Assembly: GCA_017504305.1 (NCBI GenBank)
Contig: JAFVRJ010000008.1
Location: 3,477-67,476 of the forward strand
Length of the DNA: 64,000 nt
Reading direction: 5' to 3'
Source of the DNA: Clostridia bacterium
Lineage (GTDB): Bacteria; Bacillota; Clostridia; Christensenellales; DTU072
Positions 34,824-64,000 of this stretch are shown piece by piece. The notes beneath the pieces are model-generated. The model was not told the origin of the DNA. It worked only from the letters and a program-made list of their open reading frames with translations, and searched no databases. Position numbers and translations under genes: made by a program. How positions within the stretch are numbered: position 1 is the stretch's first letter; the number at the start of each line of letters is the position of its first letter.

Positions 34824-34891
34824 CAAAAAACGGTTATAATTAACAAAAATATAAATTTTTTATGTTTCCGCGGATGGAAACAGGAGGCAAA

Positions 34892-45960: not shown

Positions 45961-48900
45961 ATGCTTTCCAAATATAGCGTTAAGAAGCCTCTTACCGTAG
46001 TTGTTGCGGTAATTATAGTAATTTTATTAGGTGTCGTTTCATATACAAGCCTTGGCGTTGATTTATTGCCGGAAATGGAGCTTCCGTATTTAATTGTTGT
46101 CACTGTTTACGCCGGCGCCGAGCCAGATACAGTTGATAACGAAGTAACCACCCCTTTAGAGGAGTCTTTTGCGACTGTTTCAGGCGTTAAAAGGATAAAT
46201 TCTACCTCTAACGAGCATTACTCGATGATTATTTTAGAGCTTGAGCCGGATAAGGATTCCGCGGCGATGAAGGCGAACCTTAAGGATGCTATTGATTTAA
46301 CTACGCTCCCTGATTCCGATATGCTTGTCGATCCGATGATTATTGAGCTTGATCCCAGTATGCTACCGGTTATGAGCATGAGTGTTAGTTACGATAGCGA
46401 TGACAACGATGCTAAAAATGCATATTTAAAAGAGGTTATTTCTAAACTTAACGCAGTTGATGGCGTTGCTAATATTTCGGAAAGCGGTTTTGTTTCCAAT
46501 TACGTATATTTAAATGCTAATTCTCAAAAGACTTCCAAGCATTTGATCGAGGCATTGGAAGAAAAATTCGGTATTCAATTTGAAATTTCCGAGGAGCTAA
46601 AAGAACAGATACGTGTTGAGCTACGCGATATCGTCAAGGATGCCGAGTCTAACGACTCGCTAAAAACCGAGGGAGAAGTTGATCCTCAAAAGGTTTTAGA
46701 TGCTTTATTAAAAGAGCTTGTTAAAGGCACGGGCGCCGATAGTACCAATAAAGATAATATTATAGGTGAATTCGTTAACGATTACGTTATAAGCGAGTTC
46801 GGTGTAGATGGTGCCGCTCGTACTGCTGCAATTGCTTTTATTAAGATTGCGCTTGAAAACTCATATATTTTAGAAGATGGAGAGGAAAACCAAGCGATTT
46901 ATAACAGTTTGGTCGACGGGCTAATTGATACTACGGTTACCAACTTTGTTGAAGGCTATATGGGGTCGATGCTCAACGTTTTGAGTGAAGACATATTTAA
47001 ACAACTTATTTATGCACAAGACTTCGACATGCCCGCAGGCAGTCTTAAAGAAGGTGCAACGAGTTCGGTTGTAAAGGTCGGCGATAATATTGAAAACCGT
47101 GAAGACTTTATGACTCTACCTGTCTTTACTGTTGACGTTGCACAAGTGCTTCAAGACTATATCGAAAGAATTCGTACCATTTTGTCGCTTGTCGCGACTA
47201 TGAGCGAAGACGGTAAAATAAGTCTTTCGGATGATGATTTAAAGTCTCTTGCATACTCTATCGCAAAGCAAACGCAATCTAACGTTGATTATGCGGAGTG
47301 GGTTGTTGATACCTTAACTTCAGAAAGCGCATATAGCGTTTATTACATATCAAATCCCGCTCAAAAACAATGGGTTGATATGCTCAAGGCAGAGTATCTT
47401 GATGCAGAAAAGACGCTCAACAATCCGTTTTACGATTTAACCGCATCGTGGTCCGATGTTGTACCTATAGAGTGGCGTACAAAGCTTTTAGATTGTGTTG
47501 ATGAAAACGACCTTTTCTTACCCGATGGTGCGATTATTTCGGAAGCCGTTAATTGGGACCAAAGCTACTCTGAATATTATGCCAATAGGTTTGCTTTGAG
47601 CGCTACCGCTTCGATAGCGGATAAACCTCAAGCGGGTAATTACAGAGCATATGCTGATTTAGTAACTTCGCAAGTAACAACGCTTTCACAAGAAAAGGTA
47701 TTGGTTTGGCATGCATATTTGCTTGAAAATGCTTCTTTTAAGTCAGCGGTGGATAATATTACCAATACACCTAAAGCGGATTGGCAAGTAAGTATTTTAG
47801 ATGCTGTGTTGGATGATAGGATTTATCCCGATGATTGGTCTTTTGCTGATAGAACAGGGACGTATCTCGCACTTCAAGTTGCTAAAAATACTCTTACTGC
47901 CAATAGACCCTCCGGCGCAGAAGCCTATGCACGTCTTGCTATTTACAGCGTTGCGGTAACGCAACCGGAAGGCGATTATTACATTTCGCAATCGGCTCGC
48001 GAAGCGTGGGTTCAAACTATTGCTTCAAACGAAGCATTTGTTTCTTTTATTGATACCATTGCCGATAGCGACGACTATATGTATATGGTTTACGACTATC
48101 TTGCAAAGGATGCTAAAGCATACGTTGATGCCGAGAATAAAGAGGGGCTTTCGACGTTATTGCCCGTTGGCTCTGTTGTAAAAGAAGCAAACGTTTGGGA
48201 TGATACGGACAAAGCATTATTCAAAGCAGCAATTGCAAGCAATAAGGTCAATTTTGCATCTGTCGAAGCTTCTCAAAACGAACTAAAGGAAGCCATGGGC
48301 GAAGAACTTTATAACGATTATTATAATTTCTTCCGTAATCGCTCGGCAGAAGACGTATATCAACTATTTAAGGACGTTCTTAACGTCATAGGCGACTTTG
48401 GTGGAGAGGGTGCTGTAACCGAGACCAAAGACACTGAAAGTGGTAAAATAACCCATAAGATTGACGTCCGCAAAATAGAAAACGCGTTAGAACAAAAGAG
48501 TGATGATATTAAAATCACTTTAAAAATGTACGGCCTTTGCGACGTTACTTTCCTCGATGATCTTTCGACACAAGTAACAAAACTTATCCTTGGCATCGAT
48601 AAGGATGACGTTAATATTAGTAACTCTATTCAATTGAGCGTTGATAAAGAGCCGAGCGCTTCAAGTGCCGAGGTTACCAAAGAGCTTAAAGCTGTTCTTG
48701 AAGATATAGCTAAAAAAGATAGTAAATTCAGCTATACCGTTTTAACGGACGATGGCTTGATTATCGACTTTATGTTGGATTCCGTTTTATCAAGCTTATT
48801 GATAGGCGGTTTACTTGCTCTTATAATACTTATATTCTTCCTTAAGGACATCAAGGCTACCCTTGTTATAGGAAGCTCGATTTTGATTAGCGTTTTGACG

Positions 48901-51900
48901 GCAGTAACGCTTATGTATTTTACCGGCGTAAGCCTAAACGTTATATCTCTTGGTGGCTTAACGCTTGGTGTTGGTATGCTTGTAGATAACTCTATTGTTG
49001 TTCTTGAAAACACATATAGGTTAAGGGCAAAGGGCTTTACCGTGTTACAAGCAGCAGTACAGGGCGCGAAGCAAATGCTACCTGCAATCTTCGCTTCAAC
49101 CTTAACTACTATTGTAGTATTCTTGCCGATAGTATTTATTTCCGGTCTTGTAAAAGAAATCTTTTTAGATTTCGCATTGACGATTATTTACTCATTGGGC
49201 GCATCTCTTATTGTGTCGACGACAGTAGTGCCTATGGCTTATAACAGCTTTATGAATCCTTTAGATCTTGGCAAGCAATCTGCTTTAGGTAAAAAGATTA
49301 GGGGCAATAAGCTTTATAAAGCGTTTAATTCCGGCGGTGTTTTGGTAGAAGGTAAAATAGCCCTTAGCGTTAAAAAGGCTTACGTTAAACTATTGAATTG
49401 GTCTTTAAGATTTAAGTTTGTTCCGATCATATTGGTTATTGCTTTGTTTGCAAGCAGTATATACCTTGCATTTACAGGTGGCACGGAATATTTCCCCGAT
49501 TCATACATGGGCTATATCTCAGTTAGTGTAAGTATCGATACTACTAAAATTGATAAAATTAATGAAGGATTAGAGCCTTCCAGTGATAAGTATTATACAT
49601 ATTCGGATGCCGAACAAGACGTTGTAGATACCTTAATTCAAACATTTAGTAAATATAAAGATATTAACGCGGTGGGCGTATCTCGCTCAACCGGCATGTC
49701 GATCGGCGGTATGAATCTTGGTTCGGGTAATATCAATGCAACACTAACTTTGATTGACGAAAAGGATCGTGAGCTTACCGCTCAACAAATTGTTAACGAG
49801 CTTGACAAGGAACTCGATAAGAATGCCAACGGATTGTTTACGTCTTCAGTTTCGATGTATTCATTGTCTTCGTTAATATCGATGTCTGGTGGTTCAATGA
49901 GTTTGTATCTGTACGGTGACGACTACTCGAAGATGCAACAAGAATCGAAAGCTCTTGCGGAAATACTATCAAAAATCGATGGCGTAATTTCCGTTGACGA
50001 CGGCGTCGATGAGGCCAATAAAGAATACAAAATAATAATTGATAAAAATAAAGCAAACCTTTATGGCTTAACGGTTGCTCAAGTTTATTTGCAAGTAAGT
50101 GCAGCTCTTACCGAACCTGCATCTTTGCATACTCTTAAGCTCGACGGCTCTGATAATTCAGGAATAGAAAACTTAAACGTTTATCTATATGACTCTGAAT
50201 ATAATTCGAAGTATTGGTACGCCGGCGTAGATCAAAACGGTAATGATTTGAAAGTATATTTTAAAAACAACGTGTCCGATAATGATTCCGGCTCGTTCAA
50301 CACTTACTACATTAAGAGCGGATTCAATCAAGACACTTACGTTCGTTCAACTATAAACGGTGTACAAAAAGTTCAGCTTGTTCAAAAGGGTGATTTAATA
50401 GAATGTTCACGCGTTGGTAATAAAATTTCTTATGAGTACGCAAACGTCGTTGAACAAGAGGACGGAACTCACCTCATAAACTATACTCCGGTTGAGGTTA
50501 CAATAAACGAGGAGATTAAGTATTACTCTAACGTACGTAATGACATCGATATTTTGACTTTGCCCATTACGTCCGCAAATATGCTTGATGAAAACGCCGA
50601 AACCGAGCAAGTTCCGTTATATAAATTATTGAGCGACGACTGTCTCTTGCGTGATAATAACGGCAATATAATGTATCGCTCATCTATAAACGATGAATTA
50701 ATACCTGTTGGCATACAGCTTGTGGACGGTTACACCTCGATACATCACCAAGAAAGACAAAAATGCATTACACTGACAGTCAATTACAACGAGGATATTA
50801 ATAGTGATACTATTAAGGGTCTTGTGGACGTTGAAGTAGCTAAATACAATAAAACCAAGCCTGTTGGAATCACCGTTTCGACTACGAGATCTCAAGGCGT
50901 TATGGACGGCGTATTTGAAGATTTATTTATGGTGCTTGGTGTTGCAATCATACTAATATTCCTTGTTATGGTTGCTCAGTTCCAATCCTGGAAGTCACCC
51001 TTCATTGTCATGGGAACGGTTGTGCTTGCGTTTACGGGAAGCTTTATAATGTTATGGGCGACCGGGGAGAAGTTGAGCATTATGGCTCTAATCGGTCTTA
51101 TAATTTTGATGGGCGTTGTCGTAAACAACGGGATAGTATTCGTTGATTATGCTAACAACTTGATTGAAAAGGGTTATAGTCGTAGAGAAGCCATGTTAAA
51201 GACAGGCGCAGATAGATTACGTCCGATTATAATGACGGCAATTACCACAGTTTTAGGTATGATGGGTATGGCGCTTGATGGAAGTGACTATGGCTCGTTG
51301 CTACAACCGCTTGCAATTACTTCAATAGGCGGTATGGTGTACGCTACAATTATGACTCTCTTTATCGTCCCGATATTGTACGAATTATTCAATCGTAAGA
51401 CTGGTAAACGTGCGGCTCGTGCTGCTGAATACCGCAACTCTACCCTTGATTTCAAAGAGGATGAGTTTGATCAAGTTGAAAACGACGTTGATAGATTTAT
51501 TAAGTCTGTCGTCAACACCAAAACGGAGGCAAAGGAGCAAGTTTCTGTATCTAAAGATACGGAAAAGCCCGAAAATGCCAAGAACTCGATACGTAAGACG
51601 TCGGCATTATTGCGAGCAATCAAAGGTGGAAAAATAAGAATATATCCGCTCATTGTTGGTTACGTAACTGAAAAATCTAAATGCTTAAGTAAAAAACGTC
51701 ATATAGCCGAAAAGAAAGCCGTTAATGCGTATTTAATAGAATCGCCTAATGGCATTATTCTTGTAAATGCAGGTGTTTCCAACGAGATTCGCTCAAGTAA
51801 AAAAGTTGCAAAACTTTACAAAAAGTATTATGCTAACGTAGAGCTTCCGCAAGGAACTGCAATTAACGAACAATTGTCGGCGCGGGGATATAGTTCTTCA

Positions 51901-52278
51901 GATATTGATTGCGTAGTACTCACCGATTTATCACTGATTAATGCAGGCGGACTTCAATTGGTTAAAAATGCAAAAAAGGTGGTCTACGTTAAAGATAACT
52001 TTAAGAAGCTTGATAAAAAATCGAATAAGCTACTTAAAGAATATTCAGCTGAATTAAACGTTGAGGTTCTCGATTGTTCTATGCCCCATGACTTACTTGG
52101 CGATTCAAAGATATTAATTGATTCTGTTAAAGTAAAAAAATCCGACGTTAATTTCCTAAAAGTTATCGGAGCGGAACAATCAGTTGCTTTAGGGGTACCT
52201 TCTGACGTTGTAGTTGAAGCCACTAAAGTGCTTAATACTTACTTAAAGGATACCAATCTAAAAATGTTGGAAATTTAA
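45961..52278 (+). CDS. Giant RND-superfamily transporter (AcrB/HAE-like) with expanded loops and a C-terminal degenerate MBL (AHL-lactonase-like) domain
   Basis: The N-terminus 'KKPLTVVVAVIIVILLGVVSYTSLGVDLLPEMELPYLIVVTVYAGAEPDTVDNEVTTPLEE' is typical of RND permeases. TM clusters lie at aa ~940-1150 and ~1653-1813. 2105 aa, against ~1040 for AcrB. RBS AAGGAG. Confidence 0.85.
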   Translation: MLSKYSVKKPLTVVVAVIIVILLGVVSYTSLGVDLLPEMELPYLIVVTVYAGAEPDTVDNEVTTPLEESFATVSGVKRINSTSNEHYSMIILELEPDKDSAAMKANLKDAIDLTTLPDSDMLVDPMIIELDPSMLPVMSMSVSYDSDDNDAKNAYLKEVISKLNAVDGVANISESGFVSNYVYLNANSQKTSKHLIEALEEKFGIQFEISEELKEQIRVELRDIVKDAESNDSLKTEGEVDPQKVLDALLKELVKGTGADSTNKDNIIGEFVNDYVISEFGVDGAARTAAIAFIKIALENSYILEDGEENQAIYNSLVDGLIDTTVTNFVEGYMGSMLNVLSEDIFKQLIYAQDFDMPAGSLKEGATSSVVKVGDNIENREDFMTLPVFTVDVAQVLQDYIERIRTILSLVATMSEDGKISLSDDDLKSLAYSIAKQTQSNVDYAEWVVDTLTSESAYSVYYISNPAQKQWVDMLKAEYLDAEKTLNNPFYDLTASWSDVVPIEWRTKLLDCVDENDLFLPDGAIISEAVNWDQSYSEYYANRFALSATASIADKPQAGNYRAYADLVTSQVTTLSQEKVLVWHAYLLENASFKSAVDNITNTPKADWQVSILDAVLDDRIYPDDWSFADRTGTYLALQVAKNTLTANRPSGAEAYARLAIYSVAVTQPEGDYYISQSAREAWVQTIASNEAFVSFIDTIADSDDYMYMVYDYLAKDAKAYVDAENKEGLSTLLPVGSVVKEANVWDDTDKALFKAAIASNKVNFASVEASQNELKEAMGEELYNDYYNFFRNRSAEDVYQLFKDVLNVIGDFGGEGAVTETKDTESGKITHKIDVRKIENALEQKSDDIKITLKMYGLCDVTFLDDLSTQVTKLILGIDKDDVNISNSIQLSVDKEPSASSAEVTKELKAVLEDIAKKDSKFSYTVLTDDGLIIDFMLDSVLSSLLIGGLLALIILIFFLKDIKATLVIGSSILISVLTAVTLMYFTGVSLNVISLGGLTLGVGMLVDNSIVVLENTYRLRAKGFTVLQAAVQGAKQMLPAIFASTLTTIVVFLPIVFISGLVKEIFLDFALTIIYSLGASLIVSTTVVPMAYNSFMNPLDLGKQSALGKKIRGNKLYKAFNSGGVLVEGKIALSVKKAYVKLLNWSLRFKFVPIILVIALFASSIYLAFTGGTEYFPDSYMGYISVSVSIDTTKIDKINEGLEPSSDKYYTYSDAEQDVVDTLIQTFSKYKDINAVGVSRSTGMSIGGMNLGSGNINATLTLIDEKDRELTAQQIVNELDKELDKNANGLFTSSVSMYSLSSLISMSGGSMSLYLYGDDYSKMQQESKALAEILSKIDGVISVDDGVDEANKEYKIIIDKNKANLYGLTVAQVYLQVSAALTEPASLHTLKLDGSDNSGIENLNVYLYDSEYNSKYWYAGVDQNGNDLKVYFKNNVSDNDSGSFNTYYIKSGFNQDTYVRSTINGVQKVQLVQKGDLIECSRVGNKISYEYANVVEQEDGTHLINYTPVEVTINEEIKYYSNVRNDIDILTLPITSANMLDENAETEQVPLYKLLSDDCLLRDNNGNIMYRSSINDELIPVGIQLVDGYTSIHHQERQKCITLTVNYNEDINSDTIKGLVDVEVAKYNKTKPVGITVSTTRSQGVMDGVFEDLFMVLGVAIILIFLVMVAQFQSWKSPFIVMGTVVLAFTGSFIMLWATGEKLSIMALIGLIILMGVVVNNGIVFVDYANNLIEKGYSRREAMLKTGADRLRPIIMTAITTVLGMMGMALDGSDYGSLLQPLAITSIGGMVYATIMTLFIVPILYELFNRKTGKRAARAAEYRNSTLDFKEDEFDQVENDVDRFIKSVVNTKTEAKEQVSVSKDTEKPENAKNSIRKTSALLRAIKGGKIRIYPLIVGYVTEKSKCLSKKRHIAEKKAVNAYLIESPNGIILVNAGVSNEIRSSKKVAKLYKKYYANVELPQGTAINEQLSARGYSSSDIDCVVLTDLSLINAGGLQLVKNAKKVVYVKDNFKKLDKKSNKLLKEYSAELNVEVLDCSMPHDLLGDSKILIDSVKVKKSDVNFLKVIGAEQSVALGVPSDVVVEATKVLNTYLKDTNLKMLEI

Positions 52279-54399: not shown

Positions 54400-54475
54400 G
54401 GGGATATGGCTCAGTTGGTAGAGCGATGCGTTCGCAACGCATAGGCCAGGGGTTCGAATCCCCTTATCTCCACCA
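54400..54475 (+). tRNA. tRNA-Ala (anticodon CGC)
   Basis: Manual cloverleaf, 76 nt: GGGGATA/TATCTCC acceptor with the G3:U70 identity pair, ATGCG-TTCGCAA-CGCAT anticodon arm, AGGGG-TTCGAAT-CCCCT T arm, encoded CCA. Confidence 0.9.
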
Positions 54476-54935
54476 CATACGAAAGGACGAACATAAAGTT
54501 CGTCTTTTTTGTGTGTGGTGGAGATAAGGAGAGTGGTTAGCCCTTTTGCAAAGCAAATGGGGTGCGCAAGTTTGCTTTAGCAAACCTGGCGAAAGTGAAC
54601 GCATTAGCGTTCAGGATCATTTATTGACTGAAGATATTACAAGTATTTTATTATTTTATTTTAATTACTATAGTTGAGACAATCTTTCGCAATCCCTTAA
54701 CTTTGTTACACGAAAAACGAACATAAAGTTCGTCTTTTTTTGTGTGTGGTGGAGATAAGGGGAGTGCTTACCCCTTTTTCAAAGCAAATGGGGTGCGCAA
54801 GTTGCGTTAGTAACCTGGCGAAAGAAAATGCTTACATTTTTATTTATCTCACAAACTATCCCCAATTACAAGTTTTTATTTGTTCTATTGATATCTAATG
54901 AATGAGACAGTCTTACGCGTCACCCTTGTCGACAT
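54455..54935 (+). repeat. Tandem ~231-nt repeat (about 2 units plus a decayed third start) seeded by the 3' end of tRNA-Ala
   Basis: Unit 1 is ~54455-54690 and unit 2 is ~54690-54920. The 54486-54606 vs 54717-54835 core is ~88% identical by eye. Trailing parts also align (attacaagtattttatt vs attacaagtttttattt; gagacaatctttcgcaatccc vs gagacagtcttacgcgtcaccc). Confidence 0.75.
54486..54510 (+). terminator. Terminator after tRNA-Ala
   Basis: Hairpin gacgaac-ataaa-gttcgtc followed by TTTTTT. The same hairpin plus T-run recurs at 54717-54741. Confidence 0.75.
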
Positions 54936-55042
54936 CGATTATTTCAAAGCCAGCACACAATACGTCTATTGCCTTCTTTATTTTTGTGTGATATATTAAA
55001 TTTGAAGTTATTAGTCAAATAAGAATTTTTTGGAGATACAAT

Positions 55043-55405
55043 ATGAAACTGAAGAACATTTTGATTGTAGTTAAAGATATAGAGAAATCGAGAGAATTCT
55101 ATCACAAATTATTTGGTATAGACTTAGTTCTTGACAACGATGGCAATATGATTTTAACAGAAGGTTTAGTTCTTCAAGATGAGAAAATATGGAGATCGTT
55201 TTTAAATAAAGATATTATTCCAAAAAGCAATTCTTGCGAATTGTATTTTGAAGAGCAAGATATCGAATCTTTTATTGAAAAATTAGAAAGACTATACCCA
55301 AAAATTGAATATGTAAATCATCTTATGACACATAGTTGGGGACAACGAGTAATCCGCTTCTACGATTTGGATGGTAATTTAATAGAAGTAGGAACACCAA
55401 TATGA
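55043..55405 (+). CDS. VOC (glyoxalase/bleomycin-resistance/dioxygenase) family protein
   Basis: 120 aa. 'ILIVVKDIEKSREFYHKLFG' and a C-terminal 'RVIRFYDLDGNLIEVG' beta-alpha-beta-beta-beta signature. Confidence 0.75.
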   Translation: MKLKNILIVVKDIEKSREFYHKLFGIDLVLDNDGNMILTEGLVLQDEKIWRSFLNKDIIPKSNSCELYFEEQDIESFIEKLERLYPKIEYVNHLMTHSWGQRVIRFYDLDGNLIEVGTPI

Positions 55406-55635
55406 TTTTCAAATTCCAATTATCTATTGGATTAATTCGTACGACTTTTATGTGTTCGATTATGCCTACCACTACTCCACAACACACATAAAGACGAACT
55501 TGATGTTCGTTTTTTTCTTTTTGGTGAGTATATTTAAAGCTGTAAATTGGCATTACACTATATCATGACTTGCTATTTTAGTAATTTAGTGTTAAAATTT
55601 CATTTATATTTAAACAATAATATAGTGAGGTCTAT

Positions 55636-56241
55636 ATGGCATATTATTTAATAGATTTTGAAAACGTAAAAAATGTTCAAGGCGTTAATGCTTTGTCGAA
55701 AGATGATAAGGTTGTGTTTTTCTATAGTAAAAATGCAAATTCTCTTAATTTTTCTTTGCACGTTGAGATTTCAAAGTCTCAAGCGAGCTTTGAGTATTTT
55801 GAGATAGTTAATAGTGGTAAAAATGCTCTTGATTTTCAATTATCAACATATTTAGGTAATTTGATAGCTAAATATCCGCAAGAGAAAATTTATATCGTTT
55901 CTAAAGATACCGGATTTGATAACGTTATTGCGTTTTGCTCAAAATATTTAAGCTATTCAAAAGTTGCACGAATAGAGAATTTTGTTAGCGTTAAGCCTAA
56001 TCAAAAGGTAATCAAAGAAGCTACTTCCGACACAGACGCTTTATCTATGGTTGAAATTTTAACATTGAAGAGCGCAGATCTTGATATAAATCATGATGAG
56101 ATTATAAAAATTTCGGAAATTTTTGATCAATATAAAACCCGTCAAGCCATCAACGGAAATATGGTTAAGTTCTTCAAAAATAGCGAAAAGGTCGGCAAGA
56201 TTAACAAAGTTATAAAACCCTTCCTCAAAACTAAAAGTTAA
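55636..56241 (+). CDS. NYN/PIN-like (LabA-type) domain protein with an unknown C-terminal domain
   Basis: 'YLIDFENV', 'SGKNALDFQL' and 'IYIVSKDTGFDNVI' follow the order of NYN catalytic-Asp motifs. 201 aa. Confidence 0.55.
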   Translation: MAYYLIDFENVKNVQGVNALSKDDKVVFFYSKNANSLNFSLHVEISKSQASFEYFEIVNSGKNALDFQLSTYLGNLIAKYPQEKIYIVSKDTGFDNVIAFCSKYLSYSKVARIENFVSVKPNQKVIKEATSDTDALSMVEILTLKSADLDINHDEIIKISEIFDQYKTRQAINGNMVKFFKNSEKVGKINKVIKPFLKTKS

Positions 56242-56291: not shown

Positions 56292-57188
56292 TTAATCTTC
56301 GTATAGGTGATACAATTCCATTTGGCGTATTACGTCGGGAATCGAGGTGATAACCGGACCAAGAGTACCGAGCTTAATAGATCCCATTGCCGCTGCATAG
56401 CTTAAAGAGTTTTGTGTTCCTCCAAAAAGTCTACCTAAAATATAAGTGGTAAAAATGGTAGTACCTCTGCCAATTCTACCGGCCCTGACCTTACTGTATA
56501 AATTTTCCTTATAGAAGTTATCTTCCTCGTCTAAAACGTACACCTCGTTACCCTTGGTGATCATAACTTCGTTTGCACCCCAAGACTTTATTATATCGCA
56601 AGCTTCCCTAATGTCGGTAGTTCCGGTGAGAATCTCTGCTTCAAAGCCGTTTGCCTTTACAAAATCACAATATGGAAGTAGTTCCTTTTTATGTTTATAA
56701 TCTTTTATCGTAATCCGACCTGACGTAGGGTCAACGTGATTCATAAACGCTTGCATATCGACAGCAATCATGCCCTTTGTGGCGTAATACTTTATGGTGT
56801 CAAGAGGAAAGTCGCCGTATACGTCGCCTGCAAAATAATATAGGAAGGTATCAACTTCCGGAATATTATCGATTTGAAATGGCGCGCCCTTTTGCAAACA
56901 TACTTTTTCTACCGCTTCTCTATCGGAATTAGGCATGTTGTTTTCAAAAGCGGCAGTCCTTCCATTGAATTTTGAGTACAAGCAACCTGAGATTCCCCAT
57001 ACCTTTTTTAACATCTTTTCGTCATGTTTTGATAATTTAGTAACCAAGGCATAATCTTTTTGTAATGATGCTGCAACGTAAGAAGCATACAAACAAGCAC
57101 CGCCTTCTATTACCACGTAATTATCGTAGCAGTCGGTGTTTTGCTCCATTGCAATATTGCCTATGATTACTATTTCATGCTTTGTCAT
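56292..57188 (-). CDS. PfkB/ribokinase-like carbohydrate kinase family protein (atypical C-terminal motif)
   Basis: 298 aa. N-terminal 'VIEGGACLYAS' (GG motif region). The C-terminus has 'GRIGRGTTIFTTY' where GAGD is expected. Confidence 0.55.
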   Translation of the reverse strand: MTKHEIVIIGNIAMEQNTDCYDNYVVIEGGACLYASYVAASLQKDYALVTKLSKHDEKMLKKVWGISGCLYSKFNGRTAAFENNMPNSDREAVEKVCLQKGAPFQIDNIPEVDTFLYYFAGDVYGDFPLDTIKYYATKGMIAVDMQAFMNHVDPTSGRITIKDYKHKKELLPYCDFVKANGFEAEILTGTTDIREACDIIKSWGANEVMITKGNEVYVLDEEDNFYKENLYSKVRAGRIGRGTTIFTTYILGRLFGGTQNSLSYAAAMGSIKLGTLGPVITSIPDVIRQMELYHLYED

Positions 57189-57877
57189 TATAGATTGTAC
57201 GTTTTTAATTCCTCAACTGCGATAATAGCGTCGTTACCGTTAAAAAATTCATCGGGGGATTGATAGGGCGTAACGTGCGTTGCCAAAATTTTGACGCCCG
57301 TTTTATCAACAATCTCGAGTGCTTTATCAGCGCTCATGTGTGGTCCCTTGAAGCCAATAGGCTTGGAACAATCTGCTAAAAGGTAATCGGATTTACTTGC
57401 AAGGCGCAATACGTTATCACAAAAGACCGTGTCACCAGTAATTCCTAATCGCTTATTTCCGGTTATTAAAACGCCGTGATTGGTTACCGGATGTTGCATT
57501 TTATAAAACTCAAGCTTAAGTTCACCAATTTGTAAATTAGTGTTTTCGTCGACATGATGCACCTCGAATCGTTTGTGTTCGAGTAGCGTTTTTGCCCAAG
57601 GAGTATCTTCTAAATGGGTATAGACTTTTAGTGTGTGGTTAAGGTCATCGAGTAGGTATCGCATGGGTAAAAGGTCTGAAGTGTGATCAAAGTGCAAATG
57701 GGTTAGGTATATTGCGCTTATGGTTTTTAGGTCACATATCTCCATTAGTCGCCCGAGTACCCCCGTGCCACAATCAACTAATATTTTAGTATCGCCTTGC
57801 CTTATCAAATAGCCACTACAAGCGCCGTTTTTACCTTGGGGATAGGGGCCGTATTTGCCCAAAATAGTTAGCTTCAT
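57188..57877 (-). CDS. MBL-fold metallo-hydrolase
   Basis: Intact 'LTHLHFDHTSD'. 229 aa. Its stop overlaps the start of the downstream PfkB-like gene. Confidence 0.8.
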   Translation of the reverse strand: MKLTILGKYGPYPQGKNGACSGYLIRQGDTKILVDCGTGVLGRLMEICDLKTISAIYLTHLHFDHTSDLLPMRYLLDDLNHTLKVYTHLEDTPWAKTLLEHKRFEVHHVDENTNLQIGELKLEFYKMQHPVTNHGVLITGNKRLGITGDTVFCDNVLRLASKSDYLLADCSKPIGFKGPHMSADKALEIVDKTGVKILATHVTPYQSPDEFFNGNDAIIAVEELKTYNL

Positions 57878-57975: not shown

Positions 57976-58004
57976 TTGACTTTTTATATAAATAGTTGTA
58001 AGAT
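57976..58004 (+). promoter_or_regulatory. Putative promoter of the surface-protein gene
   Basis: TTGACT, 17 nt, TAAGAT. Lies ~38 nt upstream of ATG 58042. Confidence 0.4.
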
Positions 58005-58041
58005 TTATACATAAAACTATGTCTTTGACAAGGTGACTCGT

Positions 58042-61000
58042 ATGCGAAAAGAACACAAACTTACAATTTTATTAGCTTTTATTCTCATTTTGGTCGTATG
58101 CATGGCTGCTTGCACTACAGGCGGTGGTAGTGATTATACGCTCAAACTTGTTGATGAAGTGGAATATTTTGAGTTTACTGCCGGTCAAATCGATTGGTCC
58201 AAAATCGTCTTTAACGTTCTTGATAAGGATGGCTATTTGATAAGTGTTGTTACCGCTACCGAGTCTATGGTATCAAGCGAGGACCTTGCAAAGCTTACCA
58301 CCAGTGGTATCAAAACGATCACCATAACTTACCAAGGAAGTAAATTAGAATTAGATTTTCATCTTATTCCCGCAGATGCAGCCACCGAGTTTACCGTAGT
58401 CTTTAATGCAGGCCTTGGCACTTTTAACGAAGATGGAAGCGTTACTGAAGGATCTAACATTAAAACATTTGTTGGATCAACTCTTGATGCTATTCCTGTT
58501 CCTACTCGCGCAGGTTACGATTTTGTAGGTTGGTTTGAGGACGAAAACGCTACCGGCGATATATTAGTTACGCCTTATGCGCTCAAGCGTAATATGAATC
58601 TATATGCTAAATGGTCCGATCAACGCAAATTTACCGTTAGCTACTATTTGTTCCATGACGACGTTAGTCTTGGCTTGGTAAGTAGCGTTAATAGAATTGA
58701 ATATGGCACTAAAGTATCCTTTATAAGCGCTGAACAAAAGCAAGGGCTTACCTTTGAAGGATACGAAGTTTGGAATAGCGATGAGGTTTATGACAGCGAA
58801 ACCTCTACCTTTATTCCCGCAAATCAACAAGATGCCTTCAACTGGGTTGTTACTTCCAACGTTTCAGTTAAGTTGCAATACTCAACCCACATGATAACTA
58901 TTTCATACGTATCTTCTGCATGGAAAGAAGGGGATGTCGTTGACGGAGTTACCATTATCGATGGTGGCACGGTCAATGGCGAAAAACTTGGGAAATATAC
59001 TACTCAAGTACCGTATGGCACCAATTTAGTTGCTAACCAATCACCCGTTCCCGTACTTCCTGAGAAAGATGGTCATAGCGGACTTTGGATTGACGACGTA
59101 ACCGGCAAAGAACCAATCTATGGTGTTTTAACTACCGAAATCAACGTTACTGCTCGTTATACGATTAATCAATACTCGATGTATTTCTACGACGAGAATT
59201 TGAATTTGCTTGAAAATTTAACTCGTACCGTTGATTACAATTCCTATATTGCTACAGAACCTAACGTCCCCACTAAAACCGGTCATATTGGTCTGTGGAT
59301 GGTATATAACGATGGTTTTGATGACTCGGTATTGGATGGACAACTTATCCAAATTTCTCTTAAACAACTTGCAATGACTAAAGATATTAACGTTTATGCG
59401 ATTTATAATCCCGAACGTTATCCCATCAATTTCTATTATAAAATGCAAGGTATGGACGAATTCCATAAAGAATCTTTCACTTATTCGTATGGAACTACTA
59501 TCGATAGAGCAATTGACATGACTTCCGACAAAGTCATAGACGGCATTACTTATAAGGGATATGATCCAAAATATTATGATTTCGAGTGGTATACTAACGA
59601 TGCTTATTTGAAGCAAGTAGTATTCCCCGACGACGTAGTTGCGGAAGCTCAATACTACTGTAAAGTAGTTGTTAAACCTTATCAAGTAGAATTCCGCTTG
59701 CCTTCAAACATCCAAAATTCAACAATCAGACCTGAAATTAAGACGATTCCCGTAGGCGAAAGAGTGGTTCCGCCGTCGTGGATTTTGGATTCACACACCA
59801 TTATGGGTTGGTATTATACTGCGGAAACACCTGACTACGATGCAGATAAGTCCTATAAAGTTGGCGACTACGTATATTACTATGAGCAAAGCTATAAATG
59901 CATTTCGGCTGCTACCGCTGGCGTACTACCTACCAATACTCTCTATTGGAAGCAAGAGGTTAACACCGTTCGTTTCTTTAATAGTTCGGGAGCAAGCGAT
60001 GGCATCGAGGTTAACGACTTCCATCTCTATGACGAAATCGAAAGAAATGATAGGGCTTTCTATGCTATATTACAAATTAAGAAGTTTAACGTAAGCTTCT
60101 ATAATATGACTTTTAATGCTGATAACCAAAAAGCATTTACTCAAGTAGCTTCAGCACAATTCGATTACGGCACTACAGACGTTCAGTCTGCAGTAGCTTC
60201 AGTCGTATTAAATAAGCCCGAATATACCAACGGCGTCGTTTCTTCTTTTGAATTTGAAAATTGGTATCTTGATGAAGAATTTAAAACGTTAGCCGTCGAG
60301 CTTGACAACCTTGCGCCTATTACCGGCGACGTAAAGATTTATGCTAAATGGGTTGATGCAATGGTCGGTACTGAGGGTCTTATTTATGAAGCATACAACG
60401 ATGGTCTTGCCGTAGTTGGCTTTGAGCCGGATATCGCAGAGTACTCTGTAATCAAATTGCGTATACCCGAAACCTACGACGGAAAGAATGTTCTTGCTAT
60501 TGGTAGTGAAGTATTCAATAACTTTGCCAAAGTTATCTTTATCGAGTCGATGGTATTGCCCTCAACTCTTGTTGATATTGCAGAAAATGCCTTTGCTGGT
60601 TGTTATGCACTTAAGAGTATCGAGAATAATTCGAATAGTTTTGTTGTTGAAAACGGCGTATTGTATAATGCAGATAAGTCGGTAATTATCTTGGCTATAC
60701 CTCAATATGAAAACGGCTTAGACGCATTTACCGTTCCTGCATCCGTTAAGAAGATTGGCATAGGTGCTTTCAATAATGTTGCTTCGCTTACCGAGATTTC
60801 GTTTGAAGCTAACTCTCAATTAACTGAAATTGGCGACTATGCGTTTGATGGATGTATCAACTTATCAAAGATAGCTCTCACCGAAAGTTTAGTACGTATT
60901 GGTGACTATGCTTTCCGTGGATGCGTATCTCTTGGAACTCAATCAATCAGTATTCCCGGAAGTAACAATCTTAAGAAAGTTGGATTCGGTTCCTTCGACG

Positions 61001-61413
61001 ATTGTTTGAGCGCTCTCAATAAGATTGGCAACTACCTTGTCATTGGTGGAGTCTTGGTCAAATACGTTGGAACAGAAACTAATCTTGTACTCGATAACTC
61101 AATAGTTGCGATTGCAGACGGCGCCTTCGCATATTCTCAATCTGATGCGGCAAGTTCTAACTTTGAAATTACAAATATTGAGGTTGGGCCTGATTCCAAA
61201 CTTGTCTACATTGGTAGTAAAGCTTTTGCTAACTGTTCTGCTCTTGCTCGTATTGATTTGAAAACAGCTTCAATGGTTGAAGTTGAAAATGATACTTTTG
61301 TTAACGTATCTTACTCTTGCAAGCTATACGTAAAAACTTCATTGGTTAGCATATATGAAGCCAATGAATATTATTTGAATAGTTTTGGTGCAGAAAATAT
61401 TATAGGAGCATAA
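58042..61413 (+). CDS. Large surface lipoprotein: Listeria-Bacteroides (InlB B-repeat/Flg_new) repeats + BspA-type leucine-rich repeats
   Basis: ATG 58042. Lipobox 'CMAAC'. Repeated 'GY.F.GW...........LYAKW'-type modules (e.g. AGYDFVGWFEDENATGD...LYAKW, FEFENWYLDEEF...IYAKW). The C-terminal ~350 aa has a '...IG..AF..C..L..I.'-type LRR. Confidence 0.8.
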   Translation: MRKEHKLTILLAFILILVVCMAACTTGGGSDYTLKLVDEVEYFEFTAGQIDWSKIVFNVLDKDGYLISVVTATESMVSSEDLAKLTTSGIKTITITYQGSKLELDFHLIPADAATEFTVVFNAGLGTFNEDGSVTEGSNIKTFVGSTLDAIPVPTRAGYDFVGWFEDENATGDILVTPYALKRNMNLYAKWSDQRKFTVSYYLFHDDVSLGLVSSVNRIEYGTKVSFISAEQKQGLTFEGYEVWNSDEVYDSETSTFIPANQQDAFNWVVTSNVSVKLQYSTHMITISYVSSAWKEGDVVDGVTIIDGGTVNGEKLGKYTTQVPYGTNLVANQSPVPVLPEKDGHSGLWIDDVTGKEPIYGVLTTEINVTARYTINQYSMYFYDENLNLLENLTRTVDYNSYIATEPNVPTKTGHIGLWMVYNDGFDDSVLDGQLIQISLKQLAMTKDINVYAIYNPERYPINFYYKMQGMDEFHKESFTYSYGTTIDRAIDMTSDKVIDGITYKGYDPKYYDFEWYTNDAYLKQVVFPDDVVAEAQYYCKVVVKPYQVEFRLPSNIQNSTIRPEIKTIPVGERVVPPSWILDSHTIMGWYYTAETPDYDADKSYKVGDYVYYYEQSYKCISAATAGVLPTNTLYWKQEVNTVRFFNSSGASDGIEVNDFHLYDEIERNDRAFYAILQIKKFNVSFYNMTFNADNQKAFTQVASAQFDYGTTDVQSAVASVVLNKPEYTNGVVSSFEFENWYLDEEFKTLAVELDNLAPITGDVKIYAKWVDAMVGTEGLIYEAYNDGLAVVGFEPDIAEYSVIKLRIPETYDGKNVLAIGSEVFNNFAKVIFIESMVLPSTLVDIAENAFAGCYALKSIENNSNSFVVENGVLYNADKSVIILAIPQYENGLDAFTVPASVKKIGIGAFNNVASLTEISFEANSQLTEIGDYAFDGCINLSKIALTESLVRIGDYAFRGCVSLGTQSISIPGSNNLKKVGFGSFDDCLSALNKIGNYLVIGGVLVKYVGTETNLVLDNSIVAIADGAFAYSQSDAASSNFEITNIEVGPDSKLVYIGSKAFANCSALARIDLKTASMVEVENDTFVNVSYSCKLYVKTSLVSIYEANEYYLNSFGAENIIGA

Positions 61414-61418
61414 TTTCT

Positions 61419-64000
61419 ATGGCACCAAGATCTGGTAGGTTTTTAAACGATAATAGGGGAAAGTCCGCTTGTCCGGACTTTTCTGCCTATCCGTTGCACA
61501 AAAGACTTGCCGATTTCAAAGGTTATTCGACTGACGTTTTAGCCGTATTAAAGGCGTTTTTAAAACTAAAAATTAGTATAAGTTCCCTTCAAAAACTACA
61601 GAAACGTTTACTTTTACCACCAACGTTGTTTGAACTAAAAGTTCTTAATTCATTTTGGTCGAGTGGTAAAGGACACCTCAACAGGAAGATATCGGAAATC
61701 CAAATAGTAACGGAAAACCCACATCTTTTGAAAGCTTTAGAGCTATATAATGGATTGCGTAAAGATAACGTAATTGATGGTAGACCTCGTACTCTTAACG
61801 ATCTGACCAATATGGCTTATATAGCCGCTAAAGACAGCGGGGCGGAAATGATAACCGACGTTTACGGTAACTTGGTAATGCAACGTAACGCTTTTGATAG
61901 GGGTGTTGCAAGCAAATACTACTTATCGTTAAATACAGTTTGGGATAAGCTTGGTTTTTCGGCATGTAACAAAGCGATACTTGATAATTTAGCCAAAGGT
62001 TATTTACCTTTTGGCGCCATTTATAAGGAGTACGGAGAGTCTGACGTATATGGTAGGTTTTTGTCTGCTAAAGAGATTGACGGATTGGAAATCCCCGTAT
62101 TAGAGTCAAACGAGTGCCACGACGTTAACTTTGATAACTCTGCAGTAAAGTTTTCATTGCTCGGAATTTCGGATAAGGCTTGCGTTAACGGCGGTTATTT
62201 GAGCGGAACTGAAAAGATTCTTCTCATAAAACCCAATTATTCACAAAAAACGGTTAAGGATTTTTATAAGATTGTTGAGGAAGGTTTATCAGGACTCGCT
62301 ACAAGAGTGGTAACTTGTACAAGCGGTATTCTTAACGATTTGATAGCGGTTTCCGAAGGCTTTGATATCAACATGAATCAATTTCCGCTTAAAGAAATGG
62401 ATATTGAAGATTTTGTGCTATCGCCGACAAATTCTTATTTAATCGTTTTATGCAAAGGTCAAAACGTCAAAAAGCTCAAAGAAATTTTAAAATCTTTAGA
62501 TTTTAGTAGTTACGTTATCGGCAGGTTAACTACCAGAAAGCTTTATCGATTTGTTAATGCTGACGTGGAATTTATGCGCTTAAATTCCAGTGTTGTCAAA
62601 TACCGCGTTCACGATTATACAATATGCCGTTTGGAAGATTCAACCTTTGAGCTTGGCGATAAACTTTATGATAATTTTGACGAGAGTAAGGTTGAAGATT
62701 ATTTGATAAAGCAACTCGAGCTGGGATACTTTAAAGCCGATGACGTCTTGAGCGGAGTAAGCTCCGGTGATAGCGTATACCCGCCGTATCTTGGTAAGAA
62801 TCAACTAACCCCGATGCAAAGCATAATTTTGTCACCTGCTAATGGTAGATATGGTGAAAATTGTGTTTTGATGGCATCTAACAACGTAATGAAGATAGGC
62901 AAGGATGACTTTTCCGTCACTATCAACGAGATTGTTTCCGCATTAATGAAGTTGGTTGTAAGTGGCGTACCGCTATGCGATATTGCAATTAATACAAATC
63001 TTTTATATGATGCTCACGTCAATCGCTATATGCGCGGTACGGTATTAAGCGTGTGCCTTGCTTCATTATATGCCCAAAAATATCTTGCAATCGGTACGCT
63101 TGGGAACTCGGTCGATCTTATTGCGCTTGGCTCGAATATGGTCGTTTCCGACGTAACGGCGGTCGGTACTGCAAGTCGTGATCATATTATCACGTCTGCA
63201 TTTAAGAGTGGTGATATGCTATATCGCTTCCGTATACCACGCGACGAGTACGACGTACCCGACTTCAAGTTTGTTATTAAATTTGCTTCTCACGTCTATA
63301 TGAACATAAACGTCGGCAATATTACGGCCGGTTGCGTTGTTGAAAATAACGTTATTGATTCTATTGTTAAGGGTACGATTGGCGATAGATTAGGTTTTTC
63401 ATTTGCTAAAATCGATGAAGAAACGTTTAAGAACGCTACGGGCGATATTATTCTTGCCGTAAATGAAGAGTGGGATTTTGATTCGTTTGGTGGTGAATAT
63501 TTGGGGGTTGTAGACGATACCGGTGCTATTAAAGGCGCTGATTCTACAATAAAACATAGCGAAATCGAGCGCTACGTAACGGTTTATCCTTTTAAAAACG
63601 ATATATATAGGCGTGTTGGAACAATTGTTAGCGTTGATAAGCCCACACCAAAAGCAATGGCATCTCACGTCGAAATCAACGCGCTTATACTTCATACTGA
63701 CAGTGCCTCGGAGCGGGCTTTTGCTTCTACTTTAAACTCACTTGGTTATGCTGTTAGGTCGGTAGCTATTCCTGACTCAGGTAATCGCAGTAGTAACTTC
63801 GCTCGCAGTTTGCGTGAGCAGATTTTGTATGCCGATCTTATAATAGTATCAGGTAGAGGCAAGGCAGGTAGTACGCACGACGGCGTTTATAACGTACTCA
63901 AAAATCCCATTGTTTTGGATTCATTGAACGAGCAAATATTTAATAATTCCGCACTTGTATTAGGTACAGGTGAAGGGGCAAGAGCGCTACTTGAACTTGG
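61419..64000 (+). CDS. FGAM synthase (PurL/PurQ)-like protein with degenerate catalytic motifs; 3' end outside the window, start uncertain
   Basis: Not in the ORF track. A single frame is open from ATG 61419 (AGGAG 10 nt upstream) to the window end, ~860 codons. It is collinear with PurL: 'LFELKVLNSFWSSGKGHLNRK' aligns with 'WSEHCSYK', 'ESNECHDVNF' with 'ESHNHPSAIEP', and the terminal 'LVLGTGEGARALLELG' with PurQ 'LGVCNGFQIL'. Confidence 0.7.
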   Translation, partial: MAPRSGRFLNDNRGKSACPDFSAYPLHKRLADFKGYSTDVLAVLKAFLKLKISISSLQKLQKRLLLPPTLFELKVLNSFWSSGKGHLNRKISEIQIVTENPHLLKALELYNGLRKDNVIDGRPRTLNDLTNMAYIAAKDSGAEMITDVYGNLVMQRNAFDRGVASKYYLSLNTVWDKLGFSACNKAILDNLAKGYLPFGAIYKEYGESDVYGRFLSAKEIDGLEIPVLESNECHDVNFDNSAVKFSLLGISDKACVNGGYLSGTEKILLIKPNYSQKTVKDFYKIVEEGLSGLATRVVTCTSGILNDLIAVSEGFDINMNQFPLKEMDIEDFVLSPTNSYLIVLCKGQNVKKLKEILKSLDFSSYVIGRLTTRKLYRFVNADVEFMRLNSSVVKYRVHDYTICRLEDSTFELGDKLYDNFDESKVEDYLIKQLELGYFKADDVLSGVSSGDSVYPPYLGKNQLTPMQSIILSPANGRYGENCVLMASNNVMKIGKDDFSVTINEIVSALMKLVVSGVPLCDIAINTNLLYDAHVNRYMRGTVLSVCLASLYAQKYLAIGTLGNSVDLIALGSNMVVSDVTAVGTASRDHIITSAFKSGDMLYRFRIPRDEYDVPDFKFVIKFASHVYMNINVGNITAGCVVENNVIDSIVKGTIGDRLGFSFAKIDEETFKNATGDIILAVNEEWDFDSFGGEYLGVVDDTGAIKGADSTIKHSEIERYVTVYPFKNDIYRRVGTIVSVDKPTPKAMASHVEINALILHTDSASERAFASTLNSLGYAVRSVAIPDSGNRSSNFARSLREQILYADLIIVSGRGKAGSTHDGVYNVLKNPIVLDSLNEQIFNNSALVLGTGEGARALLEL
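61458..61483 (+). terminator. Possible intrinsic terminator (or intragenic hairpin) after the surface-protein gene
   Basis: ~10-bp stem ggaaagtccg / cggacttttc with the T-run inside the 3' arm, 45 nt after the stop at 61413. It lies inside the 5' end of the open PurL-like frame, so its role is ambiguous. Confidence 0.4.

Follow-up and report, generated by a model that had tools for sequence, protein, structure and literature searches.

At the 3′ end of a 64,000-nucleotide stretch of a Clostridia bacterium genome (contig JAFVRJ010000008.1; this whole stretch is called the window below) lies a gene for a PurL-like protein that, judged from alignments and a structure model, derives from phosphoribosylformylglycinamidine (FGAM) synthase, is maintained by purifying selection and has almost certainly lost both active sites of its ancestor. 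The reading we favor, with a probability of about 60%, is that of a non-catalytic PurL-fold protein acting together with a surface lipoprotein containing leucine-rich repeats (LRR), whose gene is located directly upstream.

The reading frame comprises 860 stop-free codons and is open to the window edge, and its ATG at 61419 starts 5 nt past the TAA stop codon (61411-61413) of the LRR gene. A full-length protein of 1005 amino acids (aa) in public data (P0001) is 99% identical, which shows that the window holds the 5′ 86% of the gene. Both the uninterrupted frame of about 860 codons running off the window and the 5-nt gap to the gene of a large LRR surface protein had been reported in a first-pass annotation of this DNA and were borne out by translation of 61419-64000 and by the positions of the two codons. 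Also the peptides quoted there were found at the positions given for them (WSSGKGH at 61656-61676, ESNECH from 62103, VSGRGKAGS at 63846-63872, GTGEGAR at 63963-63983). The gene and its start are as follows:

61419-64000, forward strand: PurL-derived pseudo-enzyme gene, coding for residues 1-860 of 1005, with its 3′ end past the window
61404-61408, forward strand: Shine-Dalgarno-like AGGAG, read from the sequence, within the end of the LRR gene and 10 nt 5′ of the ATG

The relationship to PurL was evident from three types of comparison. With phmmer, clostridial single-chain PurLs (1226-1237 aa) were matched at E 1e-28, and hhalign of the family profile against a PurL profile gave a probability of 100% (E 1.1e-53, 951 columns, 24% identity). 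An AlphaFold2 model with a mean predicted local distance difference test score (pLDDT) of 80 and a predicted template modelling score (pTM) of 0.70 was used for a Foldseek search, in which Salmonella PurL (StPurL, 1T3T) and human PFAS (9N9W) were found at E ~1e-45 with an identity of just 13-14%, followed by small PurLs and then by SelD, ThiL, and HypE. The collinearity with single-chain PurL claimed in the first-pass annotation was confirmed by the hhalign alignment. As judged from these alignments, the open reading frame (ORF) is a true homologue and a descendant of the single-chain clostridial FGAM synthase PurL of the TIGR01857 type. The PurL fold is kept, with the linker, the PurM-type pseudo-dimer A1-B1-A2-B2, and the class-I glutaminase-like domain. 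Full-length P0001 matched Pfam GATase_5 (PF13507) with 78.2 bits (threshold 27; 7e-22; residues 823-984), a match that is to be read as fold membership only, the catalytic residues being absent. The curated models scored the window fragment below cut-off (NCBIfam TIGR01736, 16.7 bits versus 525.75; NF002290, 14.6 versus 648), as did Pfam AIRS_C (E 0.03, 14.8 bits versus a cut-off of 23.1), and a search of PDB sequences with the window fragment alone gave no match, so that it took the family profile or the predicted structure to recognize the homology.

The direct evolutionary source is the clostridial single-chain PurL (TIGR01857 type; P0011 and P0012, 1232 aa), to which the family is collinear from the linker to the C-terminus at ~24% identity. 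Shared features are the A1-B1-A2-B2 and glutaminase folds and the retained motifs PTxxE, GKxQLTP, LYAQ, PDF, NPxGS, and SPDG. In contrast to the clostridial enzyme, the family lacks the N-domain and the catalytic motifs, is encoded outside the pur operon, and evolves about twice as fast (50% versus 72-86% identity in a comparable set).

The fate of the catalytic motifs was analyzed by comparing 10 close family members with nine genuine PurLs, using MAFFT and hhalign and a column numbering anchored to Salmonella PurL (chain index minus 8, giving H216, H296, C1135, H1260, E1262, and R1263). His296 is a functional residue of PurL (PMC7124931) and the Cys of the glutaminase triad has been described (PMC13013826). 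Every tabulated motif was retained in all nine genuine PurLs and lost in all 10 close family members, from which His216, His296, Cys1135, and His1260 are absent without exception. The segments concerned, and the landmarks between them, are located in the window as follows:

61491-61643, forward strand: linker-domain-like region (residues 25-75), the protein start relative to PurL
61656-61676, forward strand: WSSGKGH, remnant of WSDH(216)CRH, with the His216 position gapped or Gly; family form WS--[SC]GKGH
61932-61958, forward strand: NTVWDK|LGF, junction of a ~35-residue deletion in which ETH(296)NHP...GGAIRD is gone (His296 and the ATP/Mg motif)
62103-62120, forward strand: ESNECH, a family-specific insertion (ECPxCx in relatives) ~50 residues downstream of the ETHNHP deletion
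62316-62336, forward strand: CTS-GILN, remnant of CNDFGAGG with FGAG deleted; family form ND----G versus NDFGAGG
63102-63122, forward strand: GNSVDLI, in place of GGKDSMSG of the A2 subdomain, a motif without variation among the genuine PurLs sampled; family form GNS[IV]ELM
63675-64000, forward strand: start of the glutaminase-like (GATase_5) domain, from Pfam on P0001, the motif table and the conservation profile
63846-63872, forward strand: VSGRGKAGS, in place of the oxyanion motif PGGFSGGD; family form SG[RK]S
63963-63983, forward strand: GTGEGAR, in place of GIC(1135)NGFQ, Cys replaced by Gly; family form GTG[ED]GAR

The PurS-like N-domain of ~150 aa is absent, as the first-pass annotation had suspected: in both alignments family residue ~26 pairs with PurL residue ~168. 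MAFFT and hhalign also agree in placing the ETHNHP...GGAIRD deletion between residues 175 and 176 (nt ~61941-61946). The C-loop GRDGCGGATGSS, which would lie just upstream of CTS-GILN, and the FPGTNCE motif are deleted, the SESQER motif is lost, SHGEG of PurL reads xAGxK, and GH(1260)SE(1262)R is changed to [QM]PEL, with His replaced by Gln or Met and the Glu kept; this last motif lies past the window end and was read from P0001 (His1260 to Gln). The auxiliary ADP site was uninformative, since clostridial PurLs themselves differ from StPurL at E718/N722. Three of the motif losses had been proposed beforehand and agree with the alignments, namely degeneration of the WSEHCSYK-type signature, replacement of the PGGFSYGD-type motif, and absence of the nucleophile Cys. 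A fourth, ESNECHDVNFDNSAVKF as a degenerate form of ESHNHPSAIEPYQGAATG, was right with regard to the loss of the motif, the whole ~35-residue block being deleted, and wrong with regard to homology, ESNECH being a separate insertion. When profile alignments were inspected for catalytic His or Cys residues at shifted positions, none were found; the segments are deleted or replaced. Taken at face value, the sequences leave hardly any room for FGAM synthesis or glutamine hydrolysis, and the protein should be non-catalytic for the PurL reaction.

To define the family, 1.84 billion cluster representatives were searched exhaustively with hmmsearch, which gave 787 matches, 62 of them at E<=1e-30. The 133 top matches were classified by their catalytic columns; as the query profile was without the Cys, this sample is biased to Cys-less sequences. 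Four classes were distinguished:

Class 1: canonical PurL, synthetase motifs and glutaminase intact, N-domain present
Class 2: synthetase motifs intact, nucleophile Cys replaced, N-domain present; ~20 representatives
Class 3: full-length proteins with the N-domain, synthetase motifs lost, glutaminase site lost or, in a few, triad kept
Class 4: both sites lost, N-domain absent, 900-1014 aa; ~30 representatives at 50% clustering, including the window gene

About 30 of the 62 representatives thus are N-domain-less proteins of 900-1014 aa, which have 13-26 residues in the N-domain columns compared to 130-150 in PurLs, and none of the ~30 class-4 representatives was found to have a His or Cys in the catalytic columns or close to them. 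According to their source names, the class-4 members come from metagenome-assembled genomes (MAGs) of uncultured Clostridia or Christensenellaceae. These data show that the window gene belongs to a broad uncharacterised family of uncultured Clostridia/Christensenellales-like bacteria.

Six independent copies of the gene (window and L001-L005) are all intact, without frameshifts or stops. Between the window and the closest copy, L001, 18 synonymous and seven non-synonymous changes were counted, corresponding to a ratio of non-synonymous to synonymous rates (dN/dS) of 0.11; in distant pairs synonymous sites are saturated (pS ~0.79 versus pN 0.13-0.36). A check of orthologues for decay and of their dN/dS had been suggested in the first-pass annotation, and its verdict that this is no pseudogene holds on both counts. 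Its original argument, a long frame in AT-rich DNA, is weak, the window having 40% GC, and is no longer needed. We have very little doubt that a functional protein is maintained by selection. Lost motifs, intact copies, and purifying selection together support the earlier proposal of a repurposed pseudo-enzyme. The same data bear on the idea that the gene encodes an active FGAM synthase with shifted catalytic residues or is a decaying pseudogene. The sub-threshold NCBIfam and Pfam matches to PurL and AIRS_C could be cited in its favor, but the profile-profile alignment shows deletions rather than shifts, the ~30 class-4 representatives lack His and Cys at the columns in question, and all copies are intact with a dN/dS of ~0.1, which leaves this idea a negligible probability.

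In a profile of 16 divergent family members, conservation was highest in B2 and in the glutaminase-like domain; it was lowest in A1/B1, the former active-site half, and in the inter-domain linkers, suggesting that function has moved away from the synthetase cleft. Two stretches stand out in the window:

63240-63536, forward strand: B2 subdomain block with RDEYDVPDFK and YLGVVDDxGxIKG, the top-conserved family motifs in the conservation profile
63915-63935, forward strand: LDSLNEQ, the best-conserved family motif in the conservation profile

Conserved motifs of the glutaminase-like domain are LDAxNEL, GxGEGxRxLxELG, and SPxGRxLGxFxxPE. Polar residues particular to the family persist unchanged even where identity falls to ~22-25%, and they are concentrated in these two domains; 44 residues of the protein are near-invariant. 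Glu1262 (Glu981 in the family) shows no variation in the family alignment or in the genuine PurLs included there, and differs in a few outlying class-4 representatives.

This pattern would also fit a new enzyme, i.e., a protein with a different catalytic activity built from newly fixed residues and acting perhaps on or for the co-encoded lipoprotein. Candidate residues would be the invariant Asp834, Asn837, and Arg799, the GEG elbow, and Glu981 in the former glutaminase pocket and Asp609, Asp615, and Asp699 in B2. The invariance of polar residues in two domains, the retention of the triad Glu, and a conservation of the former pocket that exceeds the strict need of a pure scaffold speak for such an activity. 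On the other hand, no nucleophile or metal-binding constellation known from enzyme families could be recognized, Pfam, NCBIfam, and PADLOC returned PurL/GATase_5 only, and the PurM fold has lost its nucleotide-binding motifs through deletion, so we consider a new enzymatic activity doubtful and prefer a role of the PurL-like protein in binding.

The main functional clue is the LRR neighbor. This gene and a possible promoter in front of it are located as follows:

58033-61413, forward strand: partner gene for a 1126-aa surface lipoprotein with Flg_new (Listeria-Bacteroides) repeat and BspA-type LRR_5 repeats (Pfam LRR_5 1.3e-30, Flg_new 1.5e-14)
57976-58004, forward strand: promoter-like TTGACT-17-TAAGAT in the divergent intergenic region 5′ of the LRR gene, a weak consensus match and candidate operon promoter

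The N-terminus of the partner, MRKEHKLTILLAFILILVVCMAAC, is a lipoprotein signal with a lipobox and has the same character in all complete orthologue copies, none of which has a C-terminal anchor. Ten class-4 loci were fetched (L001-L005, L088, L089, L096, L097, and the window), nine of them with readable flanks. In all nine loci with readable upstream DNA (the window, L001-L005, L089, L096, and L097), which represent four subgroups, the PurL-like gene is immediately preceded by an LRR_5/Flg_new gene, with junction gaps of -8 to +17 nt. The five closest genomes share the order metallo-beta-lactamase-fold gene (reverse strand), Flg_new/LRR_5 gene, PurL-like gene, and an ORF of ~170 aa with three transmembrane (TM) helices; the pairing in these genomes proves little alone because the whole region is syntenic. 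Divergent pairs were found for P0169 (27% identity to P0001), P0181 (22%, Christensenellaceae), and P0182 (23%, 902 aa), each located behind a Flg_new + LRR_5 gene for ~1000-1137 aa, and the other neighbors are unrelated, for example a uxuA/uxaC/kdgK cluster in L096 and rpsO-pnp in L097. Orthology of the partners extends over their full length, with 40, 28, and 24% identity to the window copy compared to 50, 27, and 22% for the PurL-like proteins, which shows that the two genes diverged in step across subgroups that are 22-27% identical. Only class 4 shows this pairing: P0185, a member of class 3, is unpaired and genuine PurLs sit in purF-M-N-H-D-L operons. No terminator-like site was found between the partner gene and the PurL-like gene, and a strong 15-bp hairpin follows the third ORF in L001 (13586-13618); as the numbers of sites in the promoter and terminator scans did not exceed those in shuffled controls, only the positions of these sites are suggestive. 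A functional link between the PurL-like protein and the LRR lipoprotein seems quite likely to us.

Several points weigh against a joint action of the two proteins. The PurL-like protein lacks both a signal peptide and a TM segment and the partner is exported, so that they are predicted to be on opposite sides of the membrane; for a stable complex, a third component or action before export would be required. The 3-TM ORF downstream is limited to the closest subgroup. All loci come from one broad lineage, the gene context covers four subgroups, and several loci have pnp close by, so that the adjacency could in part reflect inherited synteny. Carried to its end, this last argument makes the LRR adjacency mere hitch-hiking and gives the pseudo-enzyme an unrelated role. 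Against this stands the observation that the surroundings were reshuffled while the junction stayed at -8 to +17 nt, and bacteria rarely keep an uncoupled gene order at 22-27% protein identity; we therefore hold synteny without function to be very unlikely.

Two observations on the surroundings of the pair are added here. The rpsO-pnp genes are located directly upstream of it in L097 (2624-5410), ~9 kb upstream in L004 and L005 (1-660), and ~21 kb upstream in the window (34862-36991), which suggests an ancestral position next to pnp and later separation by insertions (GGGtGRT, larA, GDPD, fucose genes, and an efflux pump of the resistance-nodulation-division [RND] type). The ~170-aa ORF directly downstream of the PurL-like gene (L001, 13033-13545, with orthologues in L002-L005) is predicted to have three TM helices and matches DUF5673 weakly. 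As a core membrane adaptor it was rejected, being confined to the closest subgroup; in L089 this position is taken by a 141-aa soluble ORF.

A further explanation places the protein in purine metabolism, either as a heteromeric partner of a canonical PurL or as a sensor of a purine intermediate, the position next to the LRR gene being incidental. There is a precedent in the viral glutamine amidotransferase-like proteins (vGATs) of herpesviruses, the only known PurL pseudo-enzymes, which bind host PFAS (PMC7605207). Moreover, the genuine PurLs nearest to the family were found in MAGs of related Christensenellaceae/Clostridia that have full pur operons, so a suitable partner is plausibly present in the same cells; these PurLs (P0011, P0026) do not belong to the three family-carrying NCBI MAGs (GCA_965346345.1, GCA_045577735.1, and GCA_965353945.1), and no second PurL was found in the window or the fetched loci. 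However, no pur genes were detected near any of the 10 class-4 loci fetched, nine of them with readable flanks, and no purine genes in the 64-kb window, where three tRNAs were the sole Rfam matches, without a purine riboswitch or other regulatory element, and the explanation would not account for the close, conserved coupling to the LRR gene. PurL is also not known to oligomerise. Finally, the N-domain, which serves allosteric coupling in PurL (PMC7124931), is deleted. On balance a role as regulator or partner of PurL would be unlikely.

Returning to the preferred reading of a PurL-fold protein acting with the lipoprotein, we infer that the PurL-like gene is co-transcribed with the upstream LRR/Flg_new gene and probably translationally coupled to it, and that its product would act via binding rather than catalysis, as a cytoplasmic partner of the lipoprotein such as a chaperone, an assembly factor, or a regulator. 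The functional surface would be formed by B2 together with the former glutaminase pocket in its remodelled state (GxGEGxR elbow, LDAxNEL helix, and retained Glu1262), because these are the most conserved parts, and not by the eroded synthetase cleft. With respect to topology, the protein might act on the precursor before export as a chaperone or pilot, might have a regulatory role, or might form a complex with a further membrane component, for which the 3-TM ORF would be a candidate in the closest subgroup only. Tentatively, the PurL scaffold may have been recruited as a dedicated cytoplasmic component of a surface-adhesin module, which binds the lipoprotein precursor or links adhesin output to a metabolite sensed in the former glutamine pocket; any one specific mechanism has to be given an even lower probability.

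The gammaherpesvirus vFGARAT/vGAT proteins (ORF75, BNRF1, ORF3) have the PurL/PFAS fold without the catalytic triad and act via protein binding (PMC7605207). The parallel to herpesvirus FGARATs drawn in the first-pass annotation proved structurally apt, the AlphaFold2 model matching gammaherpesvirus tegument FGARATs in Foldseek at E 1e-38 to 1e-28; likewise, no characterised bacterial equivalent and no bacterial PurL pseudo-enzyme was found in the literature searched. The viral proteins are ~1300 aa long, descend from eukaryotic host PFAS, keep the N-terminal region, and are virion components targeting host PML nuclear bodies, RIG-I, or PFAS, whereas the bacterial family is N-domain-less, chromosomal, and coupled to a lipoprotein gene. 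This family has PurLs of the P0011 type as closer relatives than any viral protein and thus descends independently from clostridial PurL, so that the likeness is convergent in kind and not due to shared descent.

In databases the class-4 proteins are named as purine-biosynthetic enzymes. P0172, P0181, P0187, P0197, and P0351, all triad-less proteins of ~1000 aa, bear the NCBI PGAP or JGI names "phosphoribosylformylglycinamidine synthase subunit PurQ" or "FGAM synthase-like amidotransferase". PurQ has ~230 aa and an intact Cys-His-Glu triad; the family has ~1000 aa, Gly at the Cys position, and in most members a residue other than His (Gln or other) at the His position, the His being kept in a few such as P0175 and P0180-P0184. 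What both share is the GATase_5 match, which covers the C-terminal ~250 residues of the family proteins. The PurQ naming of class-4 proteins is a systematic misannotation.

Relatives of classes 2 and 3 (e.g., P0178, P0185, P0192) are also PurL-derived and have lost some or all catalytic residues, but keep the N-domain and full length, and those of the P0178 type, unlike the window family, retain a complete synthetase site; they are probably independent degenerations. In class 2 (P0178, P0202, P0207, P0212, P0228, P0250, and ~14 more), Gly, Asp, Ala, Ser, or Asn stands at the position of the Cys; such proteins look glutaminase-dead and may use free ammonia or a separate PurQ. P0238, P0276, and P0299 are full-length proteins in which the synthetase motifs are lost yet the Cys-His-Glu triad is kept. 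P0185 (L098, 9001-12720; 1239 aa) has kept the N-domain, is degenerate at both sites, has no LRR partner, and is located among parE/parC-like, flavin reductase, recX, and dnaX genes; it is probably an independent PurL-derived pseudo-enzyme lineage. The P0167 cluster (90% identity) mixes PurL-like proteins of 1004 aa with 744-aa sequences named "DUF3987 domain-containing protein [Bacilli bacterium]" and looks like a clustering artefact.

Other searches added little on the distribution of the family. A profile search of metagenome contigs gave only six weak loci, JGI metagenomes hardly containing the family, and a profile search of genome contigs with a mixed alignment was uninformative for the family, returning among the matches listed only genuine PurLs of <=27% identity. 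A mobile-element origin was rejected, as phage and plasmid records contain only distant genuine PurLs, and PADLOC found nothing for the PurL-like protein, the partner, or the neighbors and so gave no support for a defence system. The window itself is ordinary bacterial chromosome with dnaG, polA, dinB, pnp, genes for a GH2 beta-galactosidase, fucose isomerase, and an RND transporter, larA, and tRNA genes. This glycan-degrading gene neighborhood, together with the source names of relatives, points to an uncultured clostridial lineage that is probably Christensenellales-like. Further features were observed in it:

45961-52278, forward strand: 2105-aa RND transporter of AcrB/MMPL type with three ACR_tran stretches, roughly double the normal size; also conserved in L001 and L003
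25740-29588, reverse strand: 1282-aa protein with DUF4011, AAA_11/AAA_12 helicase, and C-terminal MTES_1575 restriction-endonuclease-like domain, a possible defence or repair helicase-nuclease
57188-57877, reverse strand: metallo-beta-lactamase-fold protein, divergent from the LRR gene in five close genomes; orthologues match PF23023 (Anti-Pycsar Apyc1), and a chromosomal Apyc1-like nuclease is unusual
54400-56241: lineage-specific insertion beside a tRNA, shared by the window and L001 and absent there in L002-L005; it comprises the tRNA (54400-54472) and the genes for a glyoxalase/bleomycin-resistance-like protein (55043-55405) and a PIN7-domain protein (55636-56241)

PurL/FGARAT pseudo-enzymes have so far been known only from gammaherpesviruses, as immune-evasion and tegument proteins. 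Many PurL relatives have lost the glutaminase site alone, the synthetase site alone, or both, and PurL may be an unusually frequent source of pseudo-enzymes. The PurQ and "FGAM synthase-like" labels will inflate predictions of purine biosynthesis for Christensenellales-like gut MAGs. If recruitment to an adhesin module is true, the family would be the first cellular, i.e., non-viral, FGARAT pseudo-enzyme with a defined partner, independent of the herpesvirus vGATs. An independently arisen bacterial family together with its partner gene offers a tractable system for the role of a dead amidotransferase scaffold of ~1000 residues.

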